DNA of 64,000 nucleotides from Escherichia phage vB_EcoM_LNA1. Below are positions 20,451 through 60,057 of the stretch, piece after piece; the stretch's first letter is position 1, and each line of letters opens with the position of its first letter. Position numbers and translations under genes: made by a program. The stretch lies in the sequence record MZ311863.1. One strand, 5' to 3'. Below the pieces are notes generated by a model. That model did no database searches. It worked only from the letters and a program-made list of their open reading frames with translations, and had not been told where the DNA came from.

Positions 20451-20470
20451 GGGGCTATACAGCCCCTTTT
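20451..20470 (+). terminator. rho-independent terminator
   Basis: GGGGCT-ATAC-AGCCCC hairpin followed by TTTT, 10 nt after fibre gene stop. Confidence 0.6.
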
Positions 20471-37861: not shown

Positions 37862-37890
37862 TTGACAATAGAGTATCAACAAATTAGAAT
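37862..37890 (+). promoter_or_regulatory. sigma70-like promoter (TTGACA-N17-TAGAAT)
   Basis: Hexamers read directly upstream of the SSB-like gene; short inverted repeat GAGTA/TACTC flanks the -10. Confidence 0.5.
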
Positions 37891-37926
37891 TGGTACTCTT
37901 CATAAATTGAGATAGAGGTTTAAATA

Positions 37927-53459: not shown

Positions 53460-53480
53460 GGGGCTTGAAAGCCCCATTTT
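53460..53480 (+). terminator. rho-independent terminator
   Basis: GGGGCT-TGAA-AGCCCC hairpin then ATTTT. Confidence 0.55.
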
Positions 53481-53495
53481 GAGAGAGATTAAAAG

Positions 53496-55277
53496 ATGAC
53501 TAAATCGCTTTACGCAGTACCAGCAGGTTTAAACGCAGATGCTTACAAATCTGGTCATGTTTACCAGTACCCTAGTGCAACAGAATACTTGATGTTCAAC
53601 CTGACACCACGTAGTGACAAATGGTTTAACAGCCCCTTAGCAATTGATGGTGTAGTAGCTTTTGGTATTCAACGTTTCGTTAAAGATTACCTGATAGACC
53701 ACTGGAACGCCACTTTCTTTGAACGTGATAAAAAAGAAGCAGTTGACGAAATCTTAGAAGTCATGAATGGTGTTCTGGGTAAAGATGCTATCGGTCGAGA
53801 GCATTGGGAAGCACTTCACGATTTAGGCTATCTACCAGTTGAAGTATACGCTGTAGAAGAAGGTACAGTTGTTCCTATGCGTGTTCCAATGATTGTCTTC
53901 CAGAACACTGTTTCAGGTTTCCATTGGGTAGCAGGTTATCTGGAAGATGCTTTCTCTGCTGAGATTTGGAAGACTTGCACCATTGCAACTATTGCATTGC
54001 ACTACAAACGTATCTGTAAGAAGTGGGCTGACCTTACTTGCGACAATGACTTACATTTACCTTATCAGTGCCATGACTTTGCTATGCGTGGTATGTCCGG
54101 CTTTACCGATGACGCATTTAATGCTGTAGGTCACTTAACCAGCTTTAAAGGAACTGATAGCTTCCCTGCTGTATACACGGCTAAACGCATCTATGGACAG
54201 TCTTACCCAATTTCTGATATTGGTAGTTCTGTACCAGCCACTGAACACTCTGTAATGTGTGCAAACATTGCTTGGGAAGGTGGTAATGAATTGATTGAAG
54301 AGGAAAGACGCTTTAAAGGTGAGTTGCAAACCTTCCGTCGTTTCTTAACAGAAACTTACCCAACTGGTATTGCAAGTATTGTTTCAGATACTTATAACTT
54401 CTGGAGAACTGTGTCAGAAATCTTACCAGCACTTCGTAAAGAAATTATGGAACGTGATGGTAAGCTGGTAATTCGCCCTGACTCTGGAGACCCTGTACAT
54501 ATTGTCACAGGCTATAAAGCAATCCACTTAGAGTGTGCTAAGAAGACTTATTATGAGCACCTAAGCAAGCTGGAAGCTAGTGACACAATGTTGAATGCTG
54601 TTCTGAACATGAAGCTTGAAAACATCAACTATGGTATTGCTGGATGGCTACTGTCAGAAGGCTACGAAATGGTTGTTGACAGAGAAGACTTTGAAGTTGC
54701 TGATACAGTGATGTTGAAAAATGCTTATATGGTTGGCTCTGCAAACGTTGTAACACGTCCTGTAGCAGAGATTGATGGAGCTATTAAGACCCTGTACAAC
54801 ATCTTCGGAGGGACTATTAACTCTAAAGGGTTTAAGGTACTGGATGAGCACATCGGCCTTATCTATGGTGACTCTATCACGCTGGAACGTGCAAACGAAA
54901 TCCTGAAGCGTCTGTATGAAATGGGTTTTGCAAGCTCTAACGTAGTGTTTGGTGTAGGCTCTTACACTTACCAGTACATGACTCGTGACACCTTTGCATT
55001 TGCTGTCAAAGCAACTCTTGCAAGCATTGGTGGTAAAGAGATTATGCTTGCAAAAGACCCTAAAACAGATAGTGGTGTTAAGAAATCTGCCTTTGGTGGT
55101 GTAGCACCTATGTGGGATGGTGATAAGCTGAAAGCTGTAGATGGCTATGGATTCCAGAGTTTTGCAGATGTACTTGACCACCAAGCTTGTGCTTTACGTT
55201 TAGTCTTTAGCGACTCTGAGCAGTTCGGTTATACAACTCTTGGAGATATTCGAAATAATATTGACAAGCAGCTTTAA
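53496..55277 (+). CDS. NAMPT-family phosphoribosyltransferase; candidate nicotinamide ADPR transferase (Namat) of NARP1
   Basis: NAMPT-like motifs ADAYKSGHVYQYP, FAMRGMSGF, LVIRPDSGDP, IYGDSI; 593 aa (longer than typical NadV). Confidence 0.6.
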   Translation: MTKSLYAVPAGLNADAYKSGHVYQYPSATEYLMFNLTPRSDKWFNSPLAIDGVVAFGIQRFVKDYLIDHWNATFFERDKKEAVDEILEVMNGVLGKDAIGREHWEALHDLGYLPVEVYAVEEGTVVPMRVPMIVFQNTVSGFHWVAGYLEDAFSAEIWKTCTIATIALHYKRICKKWADLTCDNDLHLPYQCHDFAMRGMSGFTDDAFNAVGHLTSFKGTDSFPAVYTAKRIYGQSYPISDIGSSVPATEHSVMCANIAWEGGNELIEEERRFKGELQTFRRFLTETYPTGIASIVSDTYNFWRTVSEILPALRKEIMERDGKLVIRPDSGDPVHIVTGYKAIHLECAKKTYYEHLSKLEASDTMLNAVLNMKLENINYGIAGWLLSEGYEMVVDREDFEVADTVMLKNAYMVGSANVVTRPVAEIDGAIKTLYNIFGGTINSKGFKVLDEHIGLIYGDSITLERANEILKRLYEMGFASSNVVFGVGSYTYQYMTRDTFAFAVKATLASIGGKEIMLAKDPKTDSGVKKSAFGGVAPMWDGDKLKAVDGYGFQSFADVLDHQACALRLVFSDSEQFGYTTLGDIRNNIDKQL

Positions 55278-55292
55278 AAGTATATGATAAGA

Positions 55293-55313
55293 GGCTCCTA
55301 CGGGAGCCTTTTT
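55293..55313 (+). terminator. rho-independent terminator
   Basis: GGCTCC-TACG-GGAGCC hairpin then TTTTT. Confidence 0.65.
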
Positions 55314-55330
55314 AATTTCTGGAGAAGATT

Positions 55331-55666
55331 ATGAAAATCAAAGAAATGAACATTAACGTTGTCCTAGAAGAACGTTGGGAGAACATTAAGAAACCTGAAG
55401 ATGGTAAAAAGTTCCTTAACAAAATTTTAGTAGCAGCTAAAGAAGAACTGACTGGCAAGATTGCAGCAGCAATCACAATAAAAATCTGTGTAAAAGGTCT
55501 TCCACAACATCACCAATTTGCACTTGACGAGTTTAAAGAAAGCTTCTACAATCCAAACAAACAGATGCTTGAAAGTAACTTTGCAGTGTCTACAAGTATC
55601 GTCCATGACAGAAGCTTTATCCTTTACAAGAATATGAGAGGTGAGTCATGCAAGCATATTGGATAG
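55331..55666 (+). CDS. hypothetical protein
   Basis: 111-aa ORF. Confidence 0.3.
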   Translation: MKIKEMNINVVLEERWENIKKPEDGKKFLNKILVAAKEELTGKIAAAITIKICVKGLPQHHQFALDEFKESFYNPNKQMLESNFAVSTSIVHDRSFILYKNMRGESCKHIG

Positions 55667-55824
55667 AAATTTTACTGTCACTTGGTAGTGTAGCAGTATT
55701 TGTTTACCTTCTTTGCAAGTACTATGCAGAGCACAAGAAGTGTGATTACTGCAACGGGGAAGGGTACACAAGAGCAGGTTGTTGCCCTATTTGTGGTGGT
55801 TCTGGTAAAATGTTTAATAAGTAA
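55648..55824 (+). CDS. small membrane-anchored zinc-finger protein (58 aa, below ORF-track cutoff)
   Basis: ATG 55648 with AGGTGA SD; hand translation shows N-terminal TM segment then two CxxCxGxG repeats (CDYCNGEG, CPICGGSG). Confidence 0.35.
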   Translation: MQAYWIEILLSLGSVAVFVYLLCKYYAEHKKCDYCNGEGYTRAGCCPICGGSGKMFNK

Positions 55825-55852
55825 TTTAACAGTAAACTAAGAGGAAAGTATT

Positions 55853-58219
55853 ATGCGCATGGTAAATGACCACGCAGAAGTGATTAAGAGTTCAACTTCT
55901 TTAGAGACGTCTCAAGCACAGATTACAATGACACCTGAGATGTTCAGCCTTTTGAGTTCAGGTGTATACACATTCAAAGAAAGGGCAGTGATTCGTGAAC
56001 TGTCATGTAACGCAGTAGATGCTCAAAAAGAAGCTGGAAAAGAGAACATCCCATTCCATGTGCATTTACCTACTCGATTTGAGCCTTACTTTGAAGTCCG
56101 TGACTTTGGAACTGGTTTAACCCATGATAAAGTAATGAGTTTGTATCTGAACTATGGGGCTTCTACGAAGAATGACTCCAATGATTACATTGGTGCAATG
56201 GGTATCGGCTCAAAATCCCCATTTGCAATTGCTCAGTCATTCACAGTATCTAGCTATGTTGATGGTGTTGTTAATAAGTACTCTGTTTACCTTGAGAATG
56301 GTATCCCTCAAGTAACTAAGCTTACTACCAACCCAACAAATGAACCCAATGGTTTAGCTGTACGTGTGGCAGTTGCTGACCATCGTATTTCAAAGTTCTT
56401 TGAAGAGGCTGGTCACGTATACTCATACTTTGCTGTAAAACCAGAAAGTAACATTGTATATGATGATGTATTAGCAGATATGAATGTCATTGCCCGTGAA
56501 GAGGGTGTTTATGATGCTATGATTCATAAGCAAAGCTGGCGTTCTAGTGGCAACAGGACAGAGTTTAATGTGGTGATGGGTAATATTGCCTACCCAGTGA
56601 ACATGGAAGCATTACTTGGTGATGATTTCTTCAAAGTCTTGCCAGAGTTTTTCCGTAGGAGCGTAGACCTTGTAAACATCTACATGCCTATTGGTTCAGT
56701 TGCTATTGCAGCTTCTCGTGAAGCATTGCAGATGAATGACACGACAAAAAATGTTATCATTGAGGCTACTAAAAAGATAACTGAAGCCATTACAAAGGAT
56801 GTTATCAAGAAAGTTAATAGCCAACCTACACTCATGGATGCTGCACAGGCCTATGCTGAGTTACGTTTGAACTCACGAGAGATGTTTAATGCTGTGTGTC
56901 CAAAGCTAGAGTGGGGTGGCGTTAAGCTTGATTCTCTGGAAGAAGAATTGCTAAACATTCGTCGTGGAATTATCTACGCAGAAGACGGCTCAGTCATTTA
57001 CGAACGTGACGGTAAAGGTAATATTAAGGTTGATAGGAACGGGAACAATATCCCTAAAGTAGATTATCTTTATGACCCAGTTGCTTATGTCAAGTTTAAC
57101 TCTTTAGAGAGTAAGATTCGTGCAACAGCACTATCCTACACTCAAGAGGCGAGCATGTTCAACATCTTTGGTGCAATGCGCAAAAGCCAGATTGGACAGT
57201 TTTTGTTCGTGATTAATGACCGCCGAAATAAAAATGGCACTGAGAAGACTGTTGGGCGTAACCAAATCTTGCGTGGTGCATGTCGAGACTATGCAAGTGA
57301 GTCTAGTCTGTTTCACAGATACAATGGTATTGTCTTTGTATTCTCGACTGAAAAAGAGTTAGATGACTTAATCAATCTGCACAAACTTGATAAAAGCTTG
57401 CTAAAGATTGTGAAAATGTCTGATAAGGAACACCATTACCAGCGTAAAGAAGCTGTAAGAGGTGTTGTAAAACTCTGGAAAGCTGTTCCAGCAGAAGGTG
57501 TAGCCTCCTACAAAGAGGTGTCAGAGGACTTAGACACAATTGAAGAACCTCAGCTTTACATTAAGGCAATTGGTGACACAGTTGATGGCGAATGTTTTTG
57601 CTCATCTCCAGAAGATGTAGCTAAGTCAGTTGCCAATGTCATTGAAAAGACAGTCTATGTTTTCCGAAAAGCAAATTGGAAAAAGATACCAGAAGACTGG
57701 ATTGAAGTAGATGAGAAGCTCTTGAGCAACAGCTTAACTAATGTTCACTGGATTAATCATAACAGGTATATGACACGTATCTATATGAATGGTGTCCTAG
57801 ACCTGACAAGCAGTTGGATTATTGCCAGAAACTTTACGTTCAATAACAGGAAGATTTCTCGTGGCTATTGCTATTCACGGGATACAAACAAAACTATCTT
57901 CCTAGAAGGTAATGAAGAGGCTGTAGAGGCAATGTTTGGTAAAATCCAGTATGTTGCTGCACCATTTGCATACACTTACACTATTAGTGTGTTGAAAACT
58001 TTGAAAGATTGTCTTGACAACGATACAAAGCTTTACAAGAAAATTAAGAAAGCTGGTGACCGTATGGTTATTAAGGTGACAAACTACCTTTCAAAAAGAA
58101 AACAAGAAAACTTCTTGCTTTCCCATTTAGATTGGAATAAAGTGTCACCCATCGAAGTGAGTAAGTTCTTAGGTTTTGATGTGAAGTGTGTTCCAGAAGG
58201 AACTACAGTTTACGATTAA
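55853..58219 (+). CDS. rIIA: rIIA-like protein (GHKL ATPase N-terminal domain)
   Basis: 788 aa; N-terminal Bergerat/GHKL-like motifs (ELSCNAVDA, VRDFGTGL, GIGSKS); followed by rIIB-like gene. Confidence 0.55.
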   Translation: MRMVNDHAEVIKSSTSLETSQAQITMTPEMFSLLSSGVYTFKERAVIRELSCNAVDAQKEAGKENIPFHVHLPTRFEPYFEVRDFGTGLTHDKVMSLYLNYGASTKNDSNDYIGAMGIGSKSPFAIAQSFTVSSYVDGVVNKYSVYLENGIPQVTKLTTNPTNEPNGLAVRVAVADHRISKFFEEAGHVYSYFAVKPESNIVYDDVLADMNVIAREEGVYDAMIHKQSWRSSGNRTEFNVVMGNIAYPVNMEALLGDDFFKVLPEFFRRSVDLVNIYMPIGSVAIAASREALQMNDTTKNVIIEATKKITEAITKDVIKKVNSQPTLMDAAQAYAELRLNSREMFNAVCPKLEWGGVKLDSLEEELLNIRRGIIYAEDGSVIYERDGKGNIKVDRNGNNIPKVDYLYDPVAYVKFNSLESKIRATALSYTQEASMFNIFGAMRKSQIGQFLFVINDRRNKNGTEKTVGRNQILRGACRDYASESSLFHRYNGIVFVFSTEKELDDLINLHKLDKSLLKIVKMSDKEHHYQRKEAVRGVVKLWKAVPAEGVASYKEVSEDLDTIEEPQLYIKAIGDTVDGECFCSSPEDVAKSVANVIEKTVYVFRKANWKKIPEDWIEVDEKLLSNSLTNVHWINHNRYMTRIYMNGVLDLTSSWIIARNFTFNNRKISRGYCYSRDTNKTIFLEGNEEAVEAMFGKIQYVAAPFAYTYTISVLKTLKDCLDNDTKLYKKIKKAGDRMVIKVTNYLSKRKQENFLLSHLDWNKVSPIEVSKFLGFDVKCVPEGTTVYD

Positions 58220-58224
58220 AGTGT

Positions 58225-58254
58225 TTGACAAGGGGCTTCAAAGCCCCTTAGAAT
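58225..58254 (+). promoter_or_regulatory. sigma70-like promoter (TTGACA-N18-TAGAAT) with hairpin in spacer
   Basis: Spacer contains AGGGGCT-TCAA-AGCCCCT stem-loop; upstream of rIIB-like gene. Confidence 0.4.
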
Positions 58255-58298
58255 ATCCTTACAAAATGATTTATTAACTAACAAGAGAGAGTAATAAG

Positions 58299-59408
58299 AT
58301 GACTACTAAAACTAAAGCACAGATTGACGCAGAAATTTACAAACTGGTTAAAGAGGGTAAGCTGACTAAAACAGCTATTGCACAGAAATTTAACACTTCA
58401 ACCCGTTCAGTTGGTCGTGCTGTAGAGCGTCATGAAGCAACCTTAAAAGGTAAGAAAAAGGTAGCTTCTAAACCAGCTACGAAGACTTTGAAGCAAGTTG
58501 CTAAGTCAGTTAAAAAGAAAGCTGGAAAATCAGTTGAAAAGGTTGTTAAAGAGCCTGTACAGAAGGCTCCGGTAAATAAACTACACGAAGCTATGCAGAA
58601 TGGTAACCAGATTGAGTATATGATTACTGGCGATTCTGTTATCATGACTTTCGGTGCAGATTCTGAAATCGTTGAGTCTACCCATCCGAACTACAAAGAA
58701 ATCGTAATGGCTGTTGTAGGCGGTGAGTATAAGAAAGCTTTCGAACTGATGAACATTCGTAAGTCTATCGAAAACTTCACTCAGGGTGCTATCACCATCA
58801 AAGGTGACAAGTTATTCTACGGTGCTGTTGAGATGCGTTCTACTCTGGTTGACCGTATTCTTCACATGATGAAGACTGGAGATAAAGGTTTCGAACGCCT
58901 TGTGATGTTCTTCGAAAAACTGATGGAAAACCCATCTAAAGATTCCGTAGAACAACTTTGGGGCTTCGTATCTCACCTTGATGTTGAAATTGATGAAGAA
59001 GGCTACATCATTGGTTGGAAGAAAGTCTCTACTCGTGAAGGAAAGCTGGTTGACTCCCACACCTACAGAGTACCTAATGATTTGGGTAACATTGTAGAAA
59101 TGCCACGTTGGATGGTTGATAATAACCGTAACGTGACTTGCTCTCAAGGTCTTCACGTTGGTGCTTGGGATTATGTTCGTTGCTTCTCAGGTGATACAAT
59201 CCTGAAGGTTCGTGTCCACCCACGAGATGTTGTATCTGTTCCAACTGATTACAACGATATGAAGATGCGTTCATCTCGTTATGAAGTTGCAGCAATCGTT
59301 GATAACCAACGTAAAGTGCTGAAAGAATGGGATGGCAAGACTGAAGCTTTGCATGTCATCGTTGGCACTGCTGGAGAACTTATCTCTCAGCGTAAACGTG
59401 AAATCTAA
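58299..59408 (+). CDS. rIIB: rIIB-like protein
   Basis: 369 aa immediately downstream of rIIA-like gene; N-terminal HTH-like segment; assignment by synteny and architecture. Confidence 0.45.
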   Translation: MTTKTKAQIDAEIYKLVKEGKLTKTAIAQKFNTSTRSVGRAVERHEATLKGKKKVASKPATKTLKQVAKSVKKKAGKSVEKVVKEPVQKAPVNKLHEAMQNGNQIEYMITGDSVIMTFGADSEIVESTHPNYKEIVMAVVGGEYKKAFELMNIRKSIENFTQGAITIKGDKLFYGAVEMRSTLVDRILHMMKTGDKGFERLVMFFEKLMENPSKDSVEQLWGFVSHLDVEIDEEGYIIGWKKVSTREGKLVDSHTYRVPNDLGNIVEMPRWMVDNNRNVTCSQGLHVGAWDYVRCFSGDTILKVRVHPRDVVSVPTDYNDMKMRSSRYEVAAIVDNQRKVLKEWDGKTEALHVIVGTAGELISQRKREI

Positions 59409-59423
59409 TAAGTAATTTCTTAA

Positions 59424-59447
59424 AAGGCTGCTTCGGCGGCCTTTTTT
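59424..59447 (+). terminator. rho-independent terminator
   Basis: GGCTGC-TTCG-GCGGCC hairpin (one U.G) then TTTTTT. Confidence 0.6.
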
Positions 59448-59508
59448 ATTTGTATTTTGTGCAGAGTGCTGTATAATTGTTGTCACGATAAACTAAACAG
59501 GAGAACCA

Positions 59509-60057
59509 ATGAAGAATTTGATTCTAGGTTTGTGCTTAATGTTTACAGCACACTTATCTTATGCAGTTGACTGCCCAGAGCTATCAATTAGCCAAAAAGT
59601 AAACATGTTAAAAGCTTACCAGTATGGTGAGAATAATATGGGTAAAGGTTGGGGTATCACTCTAGCTGCTATAGCCTTACAAGAGTCAGAGTTAGGTCTG
59701 AAGGTAGAGAATAAAAAGACCCATGACTATGGTATTTTCCAGAATCACTTGAAGACTGTTGTAAAGCGTAACAAAATCAGCCCTAATGTGGCTAAAAAGA
59801 AACTCTTAAAAGACTTTGACTATGCTGCAAAAGAAACACACAAAGAGCTTGAGTTTTGGACGAAGGTGCATGGTCACCCAAAGTCAAAGAAGGCTTTACA
59901 AAAAGTTTTAGCGTCATATAATGCTGGGTATTCGTACAAAATCCCTAAAGCTAAGAAATACTCTCAAGATGTCTATAACAATATGAAAGTTATCGCTCAA
60001 TGTGAATTTGCAACAAACATTTCTAAGGTAAATCATGAAAAAATTAAGAAAGTTTGA
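59509..60057 (+). CDS. secreted lytic transglycosylase-like protein (SLT domain), candidate endolysin
   Basis: N-terminal signal peptide (MKNLILGLCLMFTAHLSYA); SLT-like catalytic region ITLAAIALQESELG; 182 aa. Confidence 0.45.
   Translation: MKNLILGLCLMFTAHLSYAVDCPELSISQKVNMLKAYQYGENNMGKGWGITLAAIALQESELGLKVENKKTHDYGIFQNHLKTVVKRNKISPNVAKKKLLKDFDYAAKETHKELEFWTKVHGHPKSKKALQKVLASYNAGYSYKIPKAKKYSQDVYNNMKVIAQCEFATNISKVNHEKIKKV

Follow-up and report, generated by a model that had tools for sequence, protein, structure and literature searches.

The 64,000-nucleotide stretch of DNA analysed here (the window) belongs to a Felixounavirus, a Felix O1-like myovirus, and is approximately 96% identical to Escherichia phage dune. 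Two adjacent genes on its plus strand, rIIA followed by rIIB, are separated by an intercistronic gap of 79 bp that holds promoter-like hexamers and a stem-loop (Table 1). Together they form the rIIA/rIIB locus of a Felix O1-like phage, already annotated as such: hundreds of near-identical GenBank records name these genes rIIA or rIIB, and many large virulent phages carry an rII locus. A previous sequence-only reading of the window had delimited the two open reading frames, with coordinates that proved exact, and had assigned them to rIIA and rIIB, an identity borne out by both the GenBank annotations and the profile searches.

Table 1. Features at and around the rIIA-rIIB junction, in window coordinates
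Feature	Position	Strand	Basis
Upstream composite: sigma70-like TTGACA-16-TATGAT (55261-55288) abutting a UACG-loop terminator hairpin and T-run (55289-55312)	55261..55312	+	
rIIA, 788 aa	55853..58219	+	PHROG 612, E 9e-188
-35 hexamer TTGACA	58225..58230	+	sequence and consensus scan
Stem-loop AAGGGGCT-TCAA-AGCCCCTT filling the promoter spacer	58230..58249	+	fold energy, conservation
-10 hexamer TAGAAT	58249..58254	+	sequence and consensus scan
Shine-Dalgarno-like GAGAGAG, 7 nt 5' of the rIIB ATG	58285..58291	+	sequence; kept in relatives
rIIB, 369 aa	58299..59408	+	PHROG 609, E 7e-88
Canonical intrinsic terminator 3' of rIIB: UUCG-loop hairpin and T-run	59422..59445	+	terminator scan

The rII proteins

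Residues 1-770 of the rIIA product align with positions 1-716 of the 725-position PHROG 612 profile (E 8.8e-188). An N-terminal GHKL-type ATPase signature had also been ascribed to this protein. As a single sequence, full-length rIIA gave no Pfam match at E<0.01 (HATPase_c appeared below threshold, E 0.077) and only noise in a search of the PDB; the GHKL assignment required a profile. A profile of 26 rIIA homologues matched the N-domains of TRAP1, Hsp90 and HtpG in the PDB (E 6e-12) with motifs I-III aligned, which upholds the signature. The GHKL (Bergerat-fold) domain spans approximately residues 10-190 (nt ~55880-56420), with motif I as E49-x3-N53-A-x-D56, motif II as D84-x-G-x-G88 and motif III as G114-x2-G117-x-G119. 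These motif residues are invariant or near-invariant across the homologues, many of which contain PF13589 or PF02518, and a GHKL domain has been stated for the T4 rIIA orthologues (PMC7824862).

The rIIB product matches PHROG 609 (E 7.2e-88) and PHROG 3803 (E 4e-51), and tblastn finds homologues in 2870 phage records. At 369 aa it is longer than T4 rIIB (312 aa); it carries a Lys-rich N-terminal extension and is about 35% identical to homologues from T4-like phages. The locus thus resembles that of T4 in that the proteins are orthologous by profile, the gene order is identical and the GHKL N-domain is present. Protection against RexAB exclusion and the rapid-lysis mutant phenotype are known only for T4 (PMC8594841), and the long-standing question of rII protein function is not addressed by the junction described below.

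Predicted promoter and stem-loop in the intercistronic gap

The rIIA stop codon (TAA, 58217-58219) is followed after 5 nt, in a stretch that is not clearly AT-rich, by the -35 hexamer, from which the spacer AGGGGCTTCAAAGCCCCT (58231-58248, 18 nt) leads to the -10 hexamer; rIIB opens with ATG at 58299. The arrangement TTGACA-N18-TAGAAT reads as had been proposed and scores 11/12 in the consensus scan. An identical 30-bp site is annotated 'promoter' in phages vB_EcoM_ASO1A (MZ726791) and vB_EcoM_AYO145A (KR014248), with the wording 'similar to TTGACA(N15-18)TATAAT with 1 bp mismatch'. Those annotations agree with the promoter call made here, although neither record mentions the spacer hairpin, and the listings of the Felix O1 paper include no promoter or terminator for the rIIA-rIIB junction. 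Although an 18-bp spacer is suboptimal for sigma70, we infer from the hexamers that the site has sigma70 promoter activity; standard sigma70 geometry would then place the transcription start near A58261. The literature yielded no Felixounavirus transcriptome and no transcript start or end data. In RT-PCR on Felix O1, ORF2 (rIIB) peaks at 10 min and ORF1 (rIIA) at 25 min. It is probable that rIIB is served by a separate early promoter.

The hairpin in the spacer had been described as perfect, with a 7-bp stem. It is indeed perfect, but the stem (AAGGGGCT/AGCCCCTT) comprises 8 bp; its final T is common to the -10 hexamer, and its core, GGGGCT-N4-AGCCCC, occupies 58232-58247. Folded as RNA, the bare 20-mer has a predicted energy of -12.5 kcal/mol; set within 40 nt of sequence, it reaches -13.3 kcal/mol. 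When 300 Markov-1 versions of the window were scanned for promoter-like sites (at least 9/12) with a stem of at least 7 bp within the spacer, such sites averaged 0.017 per sequence and were present in 5 of the 300 simulations, compared with one in the window itself; the promoter-hairpin arrangement is more than chance. No second perfect hairpin inside a promoter spacer was found in the window or in the complete Felix O1 genome, and Rfam, searched at a permissive threshold, returned no family at the junction.

By several measures the hairpin departs from the canonical intrinsic terminators of this genome. The sequence 3' of the stem, UUAGAAUAU, has 2 T in its first 8 nt, against 5-7 for the canonical terminators, and its T-weight is 0.2-1.9 against 3.3-4.9. 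No U-tract directly follows the stem, and the terminator-like scan that detected the hairpins at 55289, 59422, 61217 and 62970 did not report this one; efficient intrinsic termination is therefore unlikely. Phages Ea21-4 and Wc4 bear on the same point. In both, the junction holds a hairpin that no promoter follows; rIIB expression must then rely on read-through, and the hairpin is accordingly not a strong terminator in those phages. On these two grounds, the missing U-tract and the need for read-through in promoter-less lineages, we rejected the idea that the hairpin is an efficient intrinsic terminator.

The junction across lineages

The block TTGACA-(A)GGGGCT-N4-AGCCCC-T-TAGAAT(A) is kept in approximately 45 loci, while the loop (TCAA, TTGA, GAAA or GCAA) and both flanks diverge. 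These loci include the Moogle-like ones and L087, where the spacer is 17 nt, and the hexamers and stem are kept across Felixounavirus, the Mooglevirus-like phages and one more metagenomic lineage. TTGACA is found in all Felixounavirus and Moogle-like loci as well as in L087, L032 and Yersinia phage P778, the -10 being weaker in the last two; TTGACT replaces it in the L026/L084 contig, and the sole -10 variant seen is TAAAAT. The metagenome scan contributed two informative lineages, L087 and L088, and a scan of IMG/VR with the rIIB alignment added only Kolesnikvirus-like loci.

This pattern bears on whether the hairpin is simply an intrinsic terminator of rIIA, the hexamers being incidental AT-rich sequence without promoter activity. 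A hairpin directly after a stop codon is a common terminator layout in this genome, and a related copy at 20451 corresponds to terminator t76 of the Felix O1 paper. We nevertheless regard this explanation as very unlikely: TTGACA and TAGAAT or TAAAAT are held 17-18 nt apart even though their flanks have diverged, TTGACA persists beside the weaker -10 sequences of P778 and L032, the U-tract is absent, and the expression peaks of rIIA and rIIB differ in time.

In other Ounavirinae lineages the junction is occupied by a hairpin of another sequence, which shows compensatory or G.U changes; some of these lineages lack a promoter there. The hairpin is GGGCTG-GAAA-CAGCCC in Ea21-4, GGGGTG-GGAA-CACCCC in L088 and GTGGTGGC-N7-GCCACCAT in Wc4; in L032 a 9-bp stem lies over the -10, and in P778 a 15-bp stem encloses it. 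GNRA loops occur in several lineages. In an alignment registered by hand on the hairpin and containing few independent lineages, 96.7% of cells are paired, three of the six pairs change on both sides, and none of 500 shuffles reaches the observed score. Comparison of the aligned junctions thus shows compensatory evolution of the stem. A stem mismatch in two loci (L010 and L031) and in L083 indicates that some loss of pairing is tolerated. The hairpins of P778, L032 and a further element at 37862 in the window contain G.U pairs; since these would be C.A mismatches on the opposite strand, the structure appears to work on the sense RNA.

The same comparisons weigh on two explanations that place the function in DNA. 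GGGGCT-N4-AGCCCC could be an operator at which a dimeric phage or host regulator, bound in the spacer, switches the rIIB promoter off or on. The perfect inverted repeat lies exactly between the -35 and -10, its stem sequence is kept across genera, and among the annotated genes of Felix O1 is a transcriptional regulator, ORF85. Moreover, identical half-sites recur between genes at two further points, 20451 and 53460, and with up to two mismatches the window contains six matches where 0.39 would be expected by chance. Both of those copies, however, lie outside promoters, loop sequences flip or change freely, and elsewhere the same junction carries unrelated hairpin sequences, some containing G.U pairs, which break the palindrome at the DNA level. 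As the compensatory changes keep pairing and not sequence, an operator seems quite unlikely.

An inverted repeat that fills the entire spacer might also render the promoter supercoiling-sensitive, cruciform extrusion destroying the -35/-10 geometry; Horwitz and Loeb (1988) reportedly described a synthetic promoter in which extrusion affects that geometry. At the rIIA-rIIB junction such a switch would be highly improbable, as the G.U hairpins of sister lineages are mismatched as DNA and the hairpin persists without a promoter in some lineages. The arms here are just 8 bp and GC-rich around a 4-nt centre, and a repeat of that build extrudes poorly at physiological superhelicity.

Relation to PeSL elements and proposed working of the junction

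Promoter-early stem-loop elements (PeSLs) are composite promoter/terminator cassettes described in the T4-type phages RB49, phi1, PST and nt-1 (Arbiol et al. 2010, PMC2839356; Comeau et al. 2014, PMC4122927). Five positional subclasses of the stem-loop relative to the promoter are defined; in RB49 and phi1 the stem-loop most commonly lies between the -35 and -10 or over the -10, and reporter assays with PeSLs of these phages detected both promoter and terminator activity (PMC2839356, PMC4122927). The likeness to the junction studied here is close. In each case an intergenic promoter of sigma70 consensus is combined with a G-rich/C-rich stem-loop, which sits between the -35 and -10 or else over or 3' of the -10; the stop codon of the upstream gene lies just 5' of the -35, and a Shine-Dalgarno sequence and ATG follow; and the stem-loop is read as a terminator or attenuator of upstream transcription. 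The 58225 site itself has the sigma70 boxes, the stable stem-loop in the spacer, and the flanking stop codon and Shine-Dalgarno/ATG. The two differ in setting. PeSLs form a repeated sequence family of about 100 bp whose members gather in hyperplastic ORFan regions and have been linked to recombinational shuffling (PMC2839356, PMC4122927), whereas sites are few here and that at 58225 separates two conserved genes. The phage here is also a member of the Ounavirinae and not T4-like, and the activity of its element is predicted from sequence. The ORFan region of Felix O1 (genes 15-21, with 57-bp and 39-bp repeats; Felix O1 paper) lies outside the window, and literature searches turned up nothing on PeSLs in Felix O1-like phages. 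The rIIA/rIIB junction of an RB49-like phage has no such element, stop and start codons overlapping there as ATAATG; the T4 record retrieved for the same comparison is an rIIA-rIIB fusion mutant. The junction is real but largely ordinary, since promoter/stem-loop combinations of this kind were already known from T4-type phages.

Hairpins overlap promoters at three sites in the window, 58225, 55261 and 37862, whose sequences are unrelated except for shared GGGGCT/AGCCCC stems. The 55261 composite is kept in Felix O1 and in Mooglevirus Sf13, and its promoter is likely the start of an ORF130-ORF131-rIIA transcription unit.

We favour, with a probability of roughly 0.6, the reading that the rIIA-rIIB junction is a PeSL-like promoter/stem-loop composite in which the hairpin acts on RNA reading through from rIIA and the promoter drives rIIB. 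Host sigma70 RNA polymerase would recognise TTGACA-N18-TAGAAT and initiate rIIB mRNA near 58261. As this predicted start lies downstream of the hairpin, transcripts from the promoter would never include it, and the hairpin would form only in read-through RNA from rIIA. Transcripts arriving from upstream (from the 55261 promoter through ORF130, ORF131 and rIIA) would carry the 8-bp GC hairpin right after the rIIA stop codon, where it could serve as a partial terminator or attenuator, protect the 3' end of rIIA mRNA, or both. Read-through into the rIIB promoter would be damped, and the net outcome would be that rIIB expression is uncoupled from that of rIIA and rIIB gains early expression of its own. 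The sequence-only reading had tentatively suggested such a dual attenuator/promoter role, and the conservation, the compensatory changes, the sense-only G.U hairpins, the RT-PCR timing and the PeSL precedent all fit it. A hairpin that lacks a U-tract and fails the terminator scan is nevertheless unlikely to terminate efficiently, and the design is not new.

Promoter and hairpin could instead be two conserved elements packed together by genome compaction, neither influencing the other. Where the hairpin lies with respect to the -10 varies by lineage (in the spacer, over the -10, or promoter-less), which suggests two separable elements. We consider a functionless overlap unlikely, because the combination recurs at three strong promoters in the window, 5' of rIIA in Sf13 and as a rule in PeSLs, and because in every promoter-bearing case the start falls within the 3' arm or downstream of it, leaving only upstream transcripts to fold the hairpin.

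A wider and more tentative extension of the PeSL-like reading is that Ounavirinae, which have no relation to the T4-like phages, may use such cassettes in general, the hairpin acting only on incoming transcripts and the embedded promoter restarting transcription, with cassettes gained, lost or remodelled at junctions. Turnover of this kind is suggested by a composite 5' of rIIA that Mooglevirus Sf13 has and the window lacks, by the promoter-less hairpins of Kolesnikvirus and Wc4, and by loops that flip between TCAA and TTGA. If the extension is true, early transcription in large virulent phages would be organised by a principle, convergent or shared, of terminate-and-restart modules, which would possibly also underlie modular exchange.

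In practical terms, the rIIA/rIIB pair is now correctly delimited for annotation; this and the probable separate early promoter of rIIB are relevant to engineering Felix O1-like phages for biocontrol of Salmonella and E. coli or to knocking down rIIA or rIIB. The junction would extend the design of a promoter with an embedded stem-loop beyond T4-like phages, and it offers a small, well-conserved test case whose natural compensatory and loop-flip variants are suited to asking what a promoter hairpin devoid of a U-tract does to read-through, to the 3' ends of mRNA and to promoter occlusion. At the far end of the locus, the canonical terminator 3' of rIIB corresponds to t2 of Felix O1 (Table 2 of the Felix O1 paper) and is likewise kept in Sf13.

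Gene content around the junction

The region 55300-59600 of the window matches 276 phage records, led by Escherichia phage dune (96.6%), that carry annotations for rIIA, rIIB and neighbouring genes; by this sequence the source is a segment of a Felixounavirus genome. ORFs of 788 and 369 aa in a rIIA-rIIB architecture had been proposed from the sequence alone. Both lengths agree exactly, and PHROG profile searches assign the ORFs to the rIIA and rIIB families (Table), an identification that is already known. Searched against Pfam, rIIA yields no family at E<0.01, only a sub-threshold HATPase_c match at aa 45-100. PF13589 or PF02518 is frequent in homologues of the N-terminal 330 aa; in a 26-sequence rIIA alignment E49, N53, D56, D84, G86, G88, G114, G117 and G119 are invariant or nearly so, and a profile built from this alignment matches the ATPase N-domains of TRAP1, Hsp90 and HtpG at E 6e-12 and aligns motifs I-III, bearing out the suggested N-terminal GHKL signature. 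T4 rIIA orthologues are described as having a GHKL ATPase at the N-terminus and a C-terminal domain that varies (PMC7824862). The rIIAB locus is widespread and poorly understood, and protects against RexAB in T4 (PMC8594841).

The Felix O1 RefSeq rIIA begins at the codon that corresponds to M26 in the 788-aa ORF (window 55853-55927), because this is the point at which that genome was opened. A good RBS precedes the long form, whose PHROG profile match begins at position 1 and which agrees with the annotation of Shigella phage Sf13. In rIIB, a weak, sub-threshold helix-turn-helix-like Pfam match (HTH_Tnp_ISL3, E 0.0014) at aa 10-45 precedes a Lys-rich low-complexity linker at about aa 50-95 (N-terminus, window 58299-58600). 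Two phages with unrelated named hosts carry similar sequences: Campylobacter phage A132 (MG065664) has Felix O1-like rIIA/rIIB at ~93% DNA identity, and Staphylococcus phage SA1 (GU169904) encodes a closely similar rIIB (tblastn). Both probably stem from contamination or from chimeric assembly.

Predicted promoter and hairpin between rIIA and rIIB

Features of the rIIA-rIIB junction and of related sites in the window
Feature	Position	Strand	Detail
rIIA	55853-58219	+	788 aa; phrog_612, E 8.8e-188, full length (PHROG profiles)
rIIA stop codon	58217-58219	+	read from sequence
-35 TTGACA	58225-58230	+	read from sequence
Spacer AGGGGCTTCAAAGCCCCT	58231-58248	+	read from sequence
-10 TAGAAT	58249-58254	+	read from sequence
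SD-like GAGAGAG	58285-58291	+	read from sequence
rIIB ATG	58299	+	read from sequence
rIIB	58299-59408	+	369 aa; phrog_609, E 7.2e-88 (PHROG profiles)
GGGGCT-N4-AGCCCC hairpin	20451-20466		between stop codon and next RBS; Felix O1 terminator t76
GGGGCT-N4-AGCCCC hairpin	53460-53475		between stop codon and next RBS; kept in Sf13, different loop
TTGACA-16-TATGAT, near-consensus promoter	55261-55312		adjoins UACG-loop terminator hairpin 55289-55312; kept in Felix O1 and Mooglevirus Sf13
TTGACA-17-TAGAAT	37862-37899		10-bp hairpin (37870-37879 with 37890-37899) encloses -10

The hairpin described in the spacer between TTGACA and TAGAAT is present; its stem reaches 8 bp (58230-58249) with a fold energy of -12.5 to -13.3 kcal/mol, and the TTGACA-N18-TAGAAT site scores 11/12 in a promoter scan. 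Of 300 sequences simulated from the window with a Markov-1 model, 5 contained a promoter-like site whose spacer encloses a stem of 7 bp or more, an expectation of 0.017 such sites per sequence. The original Felix O1 paper places neither promoter nor terminator at the junction and puts the t2 terminator after rIIB. In the related phages ASO1A and AYO145A, a GenBank promoter feature already marks exactly this site. By RT-PCR in Felix O1, ORF2 (rIIB) peaks at 10 min, and ORF1 (rIIA), ORF129 and ORF130 at 25 min, which is consistent with an independent rIIB promoter, a role that the sequence-only reading had suggested as possible.

For the same hairpin, a possible attenuator/terminator role had been suggested. 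Directly 3' of the stem lies UUAGAAUAU, with 2 T in its first 8 nt, versus 5-7 T in the same 8 nt of the window's T-run terminators (55289, 59422, 61217, 62970, 51731), and a terminator-like scan of the window did not report the hairpin; we therefore rejected a canonical terminator. In lineages that keep a hairpin and lack the promoter, rIIB could be expressed by read-through only, so that the hairpin is at most an attenuator or a 3'-end/stability element. The predicted sigma70 start, ~58261, lies downstream of the hairpin, and in Yersinia phage P778 and L032 (a related locus) it falls inside the 3' arm; either way the hairpin would fold only in transcripts arriving from rIIA. The most likely mechanism, to which we give a probability of roughly 0.6, is predicted to have two parts: as an RNA structure in transcripts that read through from rIIA, the hairpin would serve in attenuation or in stabilising 3' ends, and the promoter would provide sigma70-dependent re-initiation for rIIB.

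Conservation of the junction

Comparison of 30 loci from IMG/VR, 16 from metagenomes and several GenBank genomes shows a constant block, TTGACA-(A)GGGGCT-N4-AGCCCC-T-TAGAAT-A, with variation in the loop (TCAA, TTGA, GAAA, GCAA), in the 3 nt that follow the -10 and in both flanks. Hexamer variants are limited to TTGACT and TAAAAT, three loci (L010, L031, L083) have a single stem mismatch, and Mooglevirus/Suspvirus-like loci and L087 show a 17-nt spacer with unrelated flanks. More distant Ounavirinae keep a hairpin of different sequence at the same junction. It stands without a promoter in Erwinia phage Ea21-4 (GGGCTG-GAAA-CAGCCC) and Pectobacterium phage Wc4 (GTGGTGGC-CTAACAA-GCCACCAT), and with one degenerate at best (CTGACA; not scored) in locus L088 (GGGGTG-GGAA-CACCCC). 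TTGACA is present in L032, with a 9-bp stem over a TCTAAT -10, and in P778, where a 15-bp stem (-22.7 kcal/mol) encloses TTAAAT. Hafnia phage SarahDanielle, with a 20-nt gap, has neither hairpin nor promoter.

Ten hairpins built of a 6-bp stem and a 4-nt loop were registered by hand in a structure-fitted alignment with few independent events; 96.7% of its cells are paired and three of the six pairs changed on both sides, and no shuffle or slid register approaches this pairing. G.U pairs occur in the hairpins of P778 and L032 and would be mismatches on the opposite strand or in duplex DNA, and several lineages have GNRA loops; both features favour structure in sense-strand RNA.

The Felixounavirus loop (58238-58241) reads TCAA in some genomes and the reverse complement, TTGA, in the others, with no intermediates (L003-L031, L075-L086) and with both forms intermingled among genomes that are nearest neighbours. 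The pattern resembles recurrent inversion of the loop via hairpin-mediated template switching, or recombination.

Relation to PeSLs and other composite sites

Promoter-early stem-loops (PeSLs) of RB49 and phi1 join sigma70-consensus early promoters to G-rich/C-rich stem-loops, and reporter assays gave evidence of both promoter and terminator activity (Arbiol et al., PMC2839356); Comeau et al. extended them to further T4-like phages. The junction element shares this architecture. It belongs to no evident repeat family, and its phage is of a different subfamily; the RB49-like rIIA/rIIB junction itself is without such an element. In the literature searched, no paper connected PeSLs with Felix O1-like phages. 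The hairpin-in-spacer is conserved and is probably a functional PeSL-like composite.

Three exact copies of the core GGGGCT-N4-AGCCCC lie in the window (20451, 53460, 58232), each shortly after a stop codon, and only the one at 58232 sits within a strong promoter. Besides the junction, two strong intergenic promoters overlap hairpins, at 55261 and 37862. The -35 of the former lies within the last part of the nadV reading frame and, as this promoter adjoins a terminator, its own transcripts would begin in the 5' arm and evade termination. The 37862 stem is perfect in Felix O1; an A-to-G change in the window makes a sense-strand U.G wobble. Just upstream of rIIA, Sf13 has TTGACA-18-TATAGT and a hairpin GTGGCA...TGCCAC; this element is missing from the window, which holds only a short remnant-like TTTAACAGT (55825-55852), and by this comparison junctions seem to gain or lose composite promoter/hairpin elements.

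After the rIIB terminator, 59446-59508 contains a perfect -10 TATAAT (~59474-59479) with a weak -35, conserved in Sf13 and probably the promoter of the next gene, a lysozyme-like ORF (59509-60057). The Felix O1 paper describes 57-bp and 39-bp direct repeats between early ORFan genes 15-21 (8.3-11 kb, outside the window), which contain TTTACA with a GGGGCTTA...TAAGCCCC hairpin, and TTGACA-N17-TAAATT; these might form a true PeSL-like repeat family.
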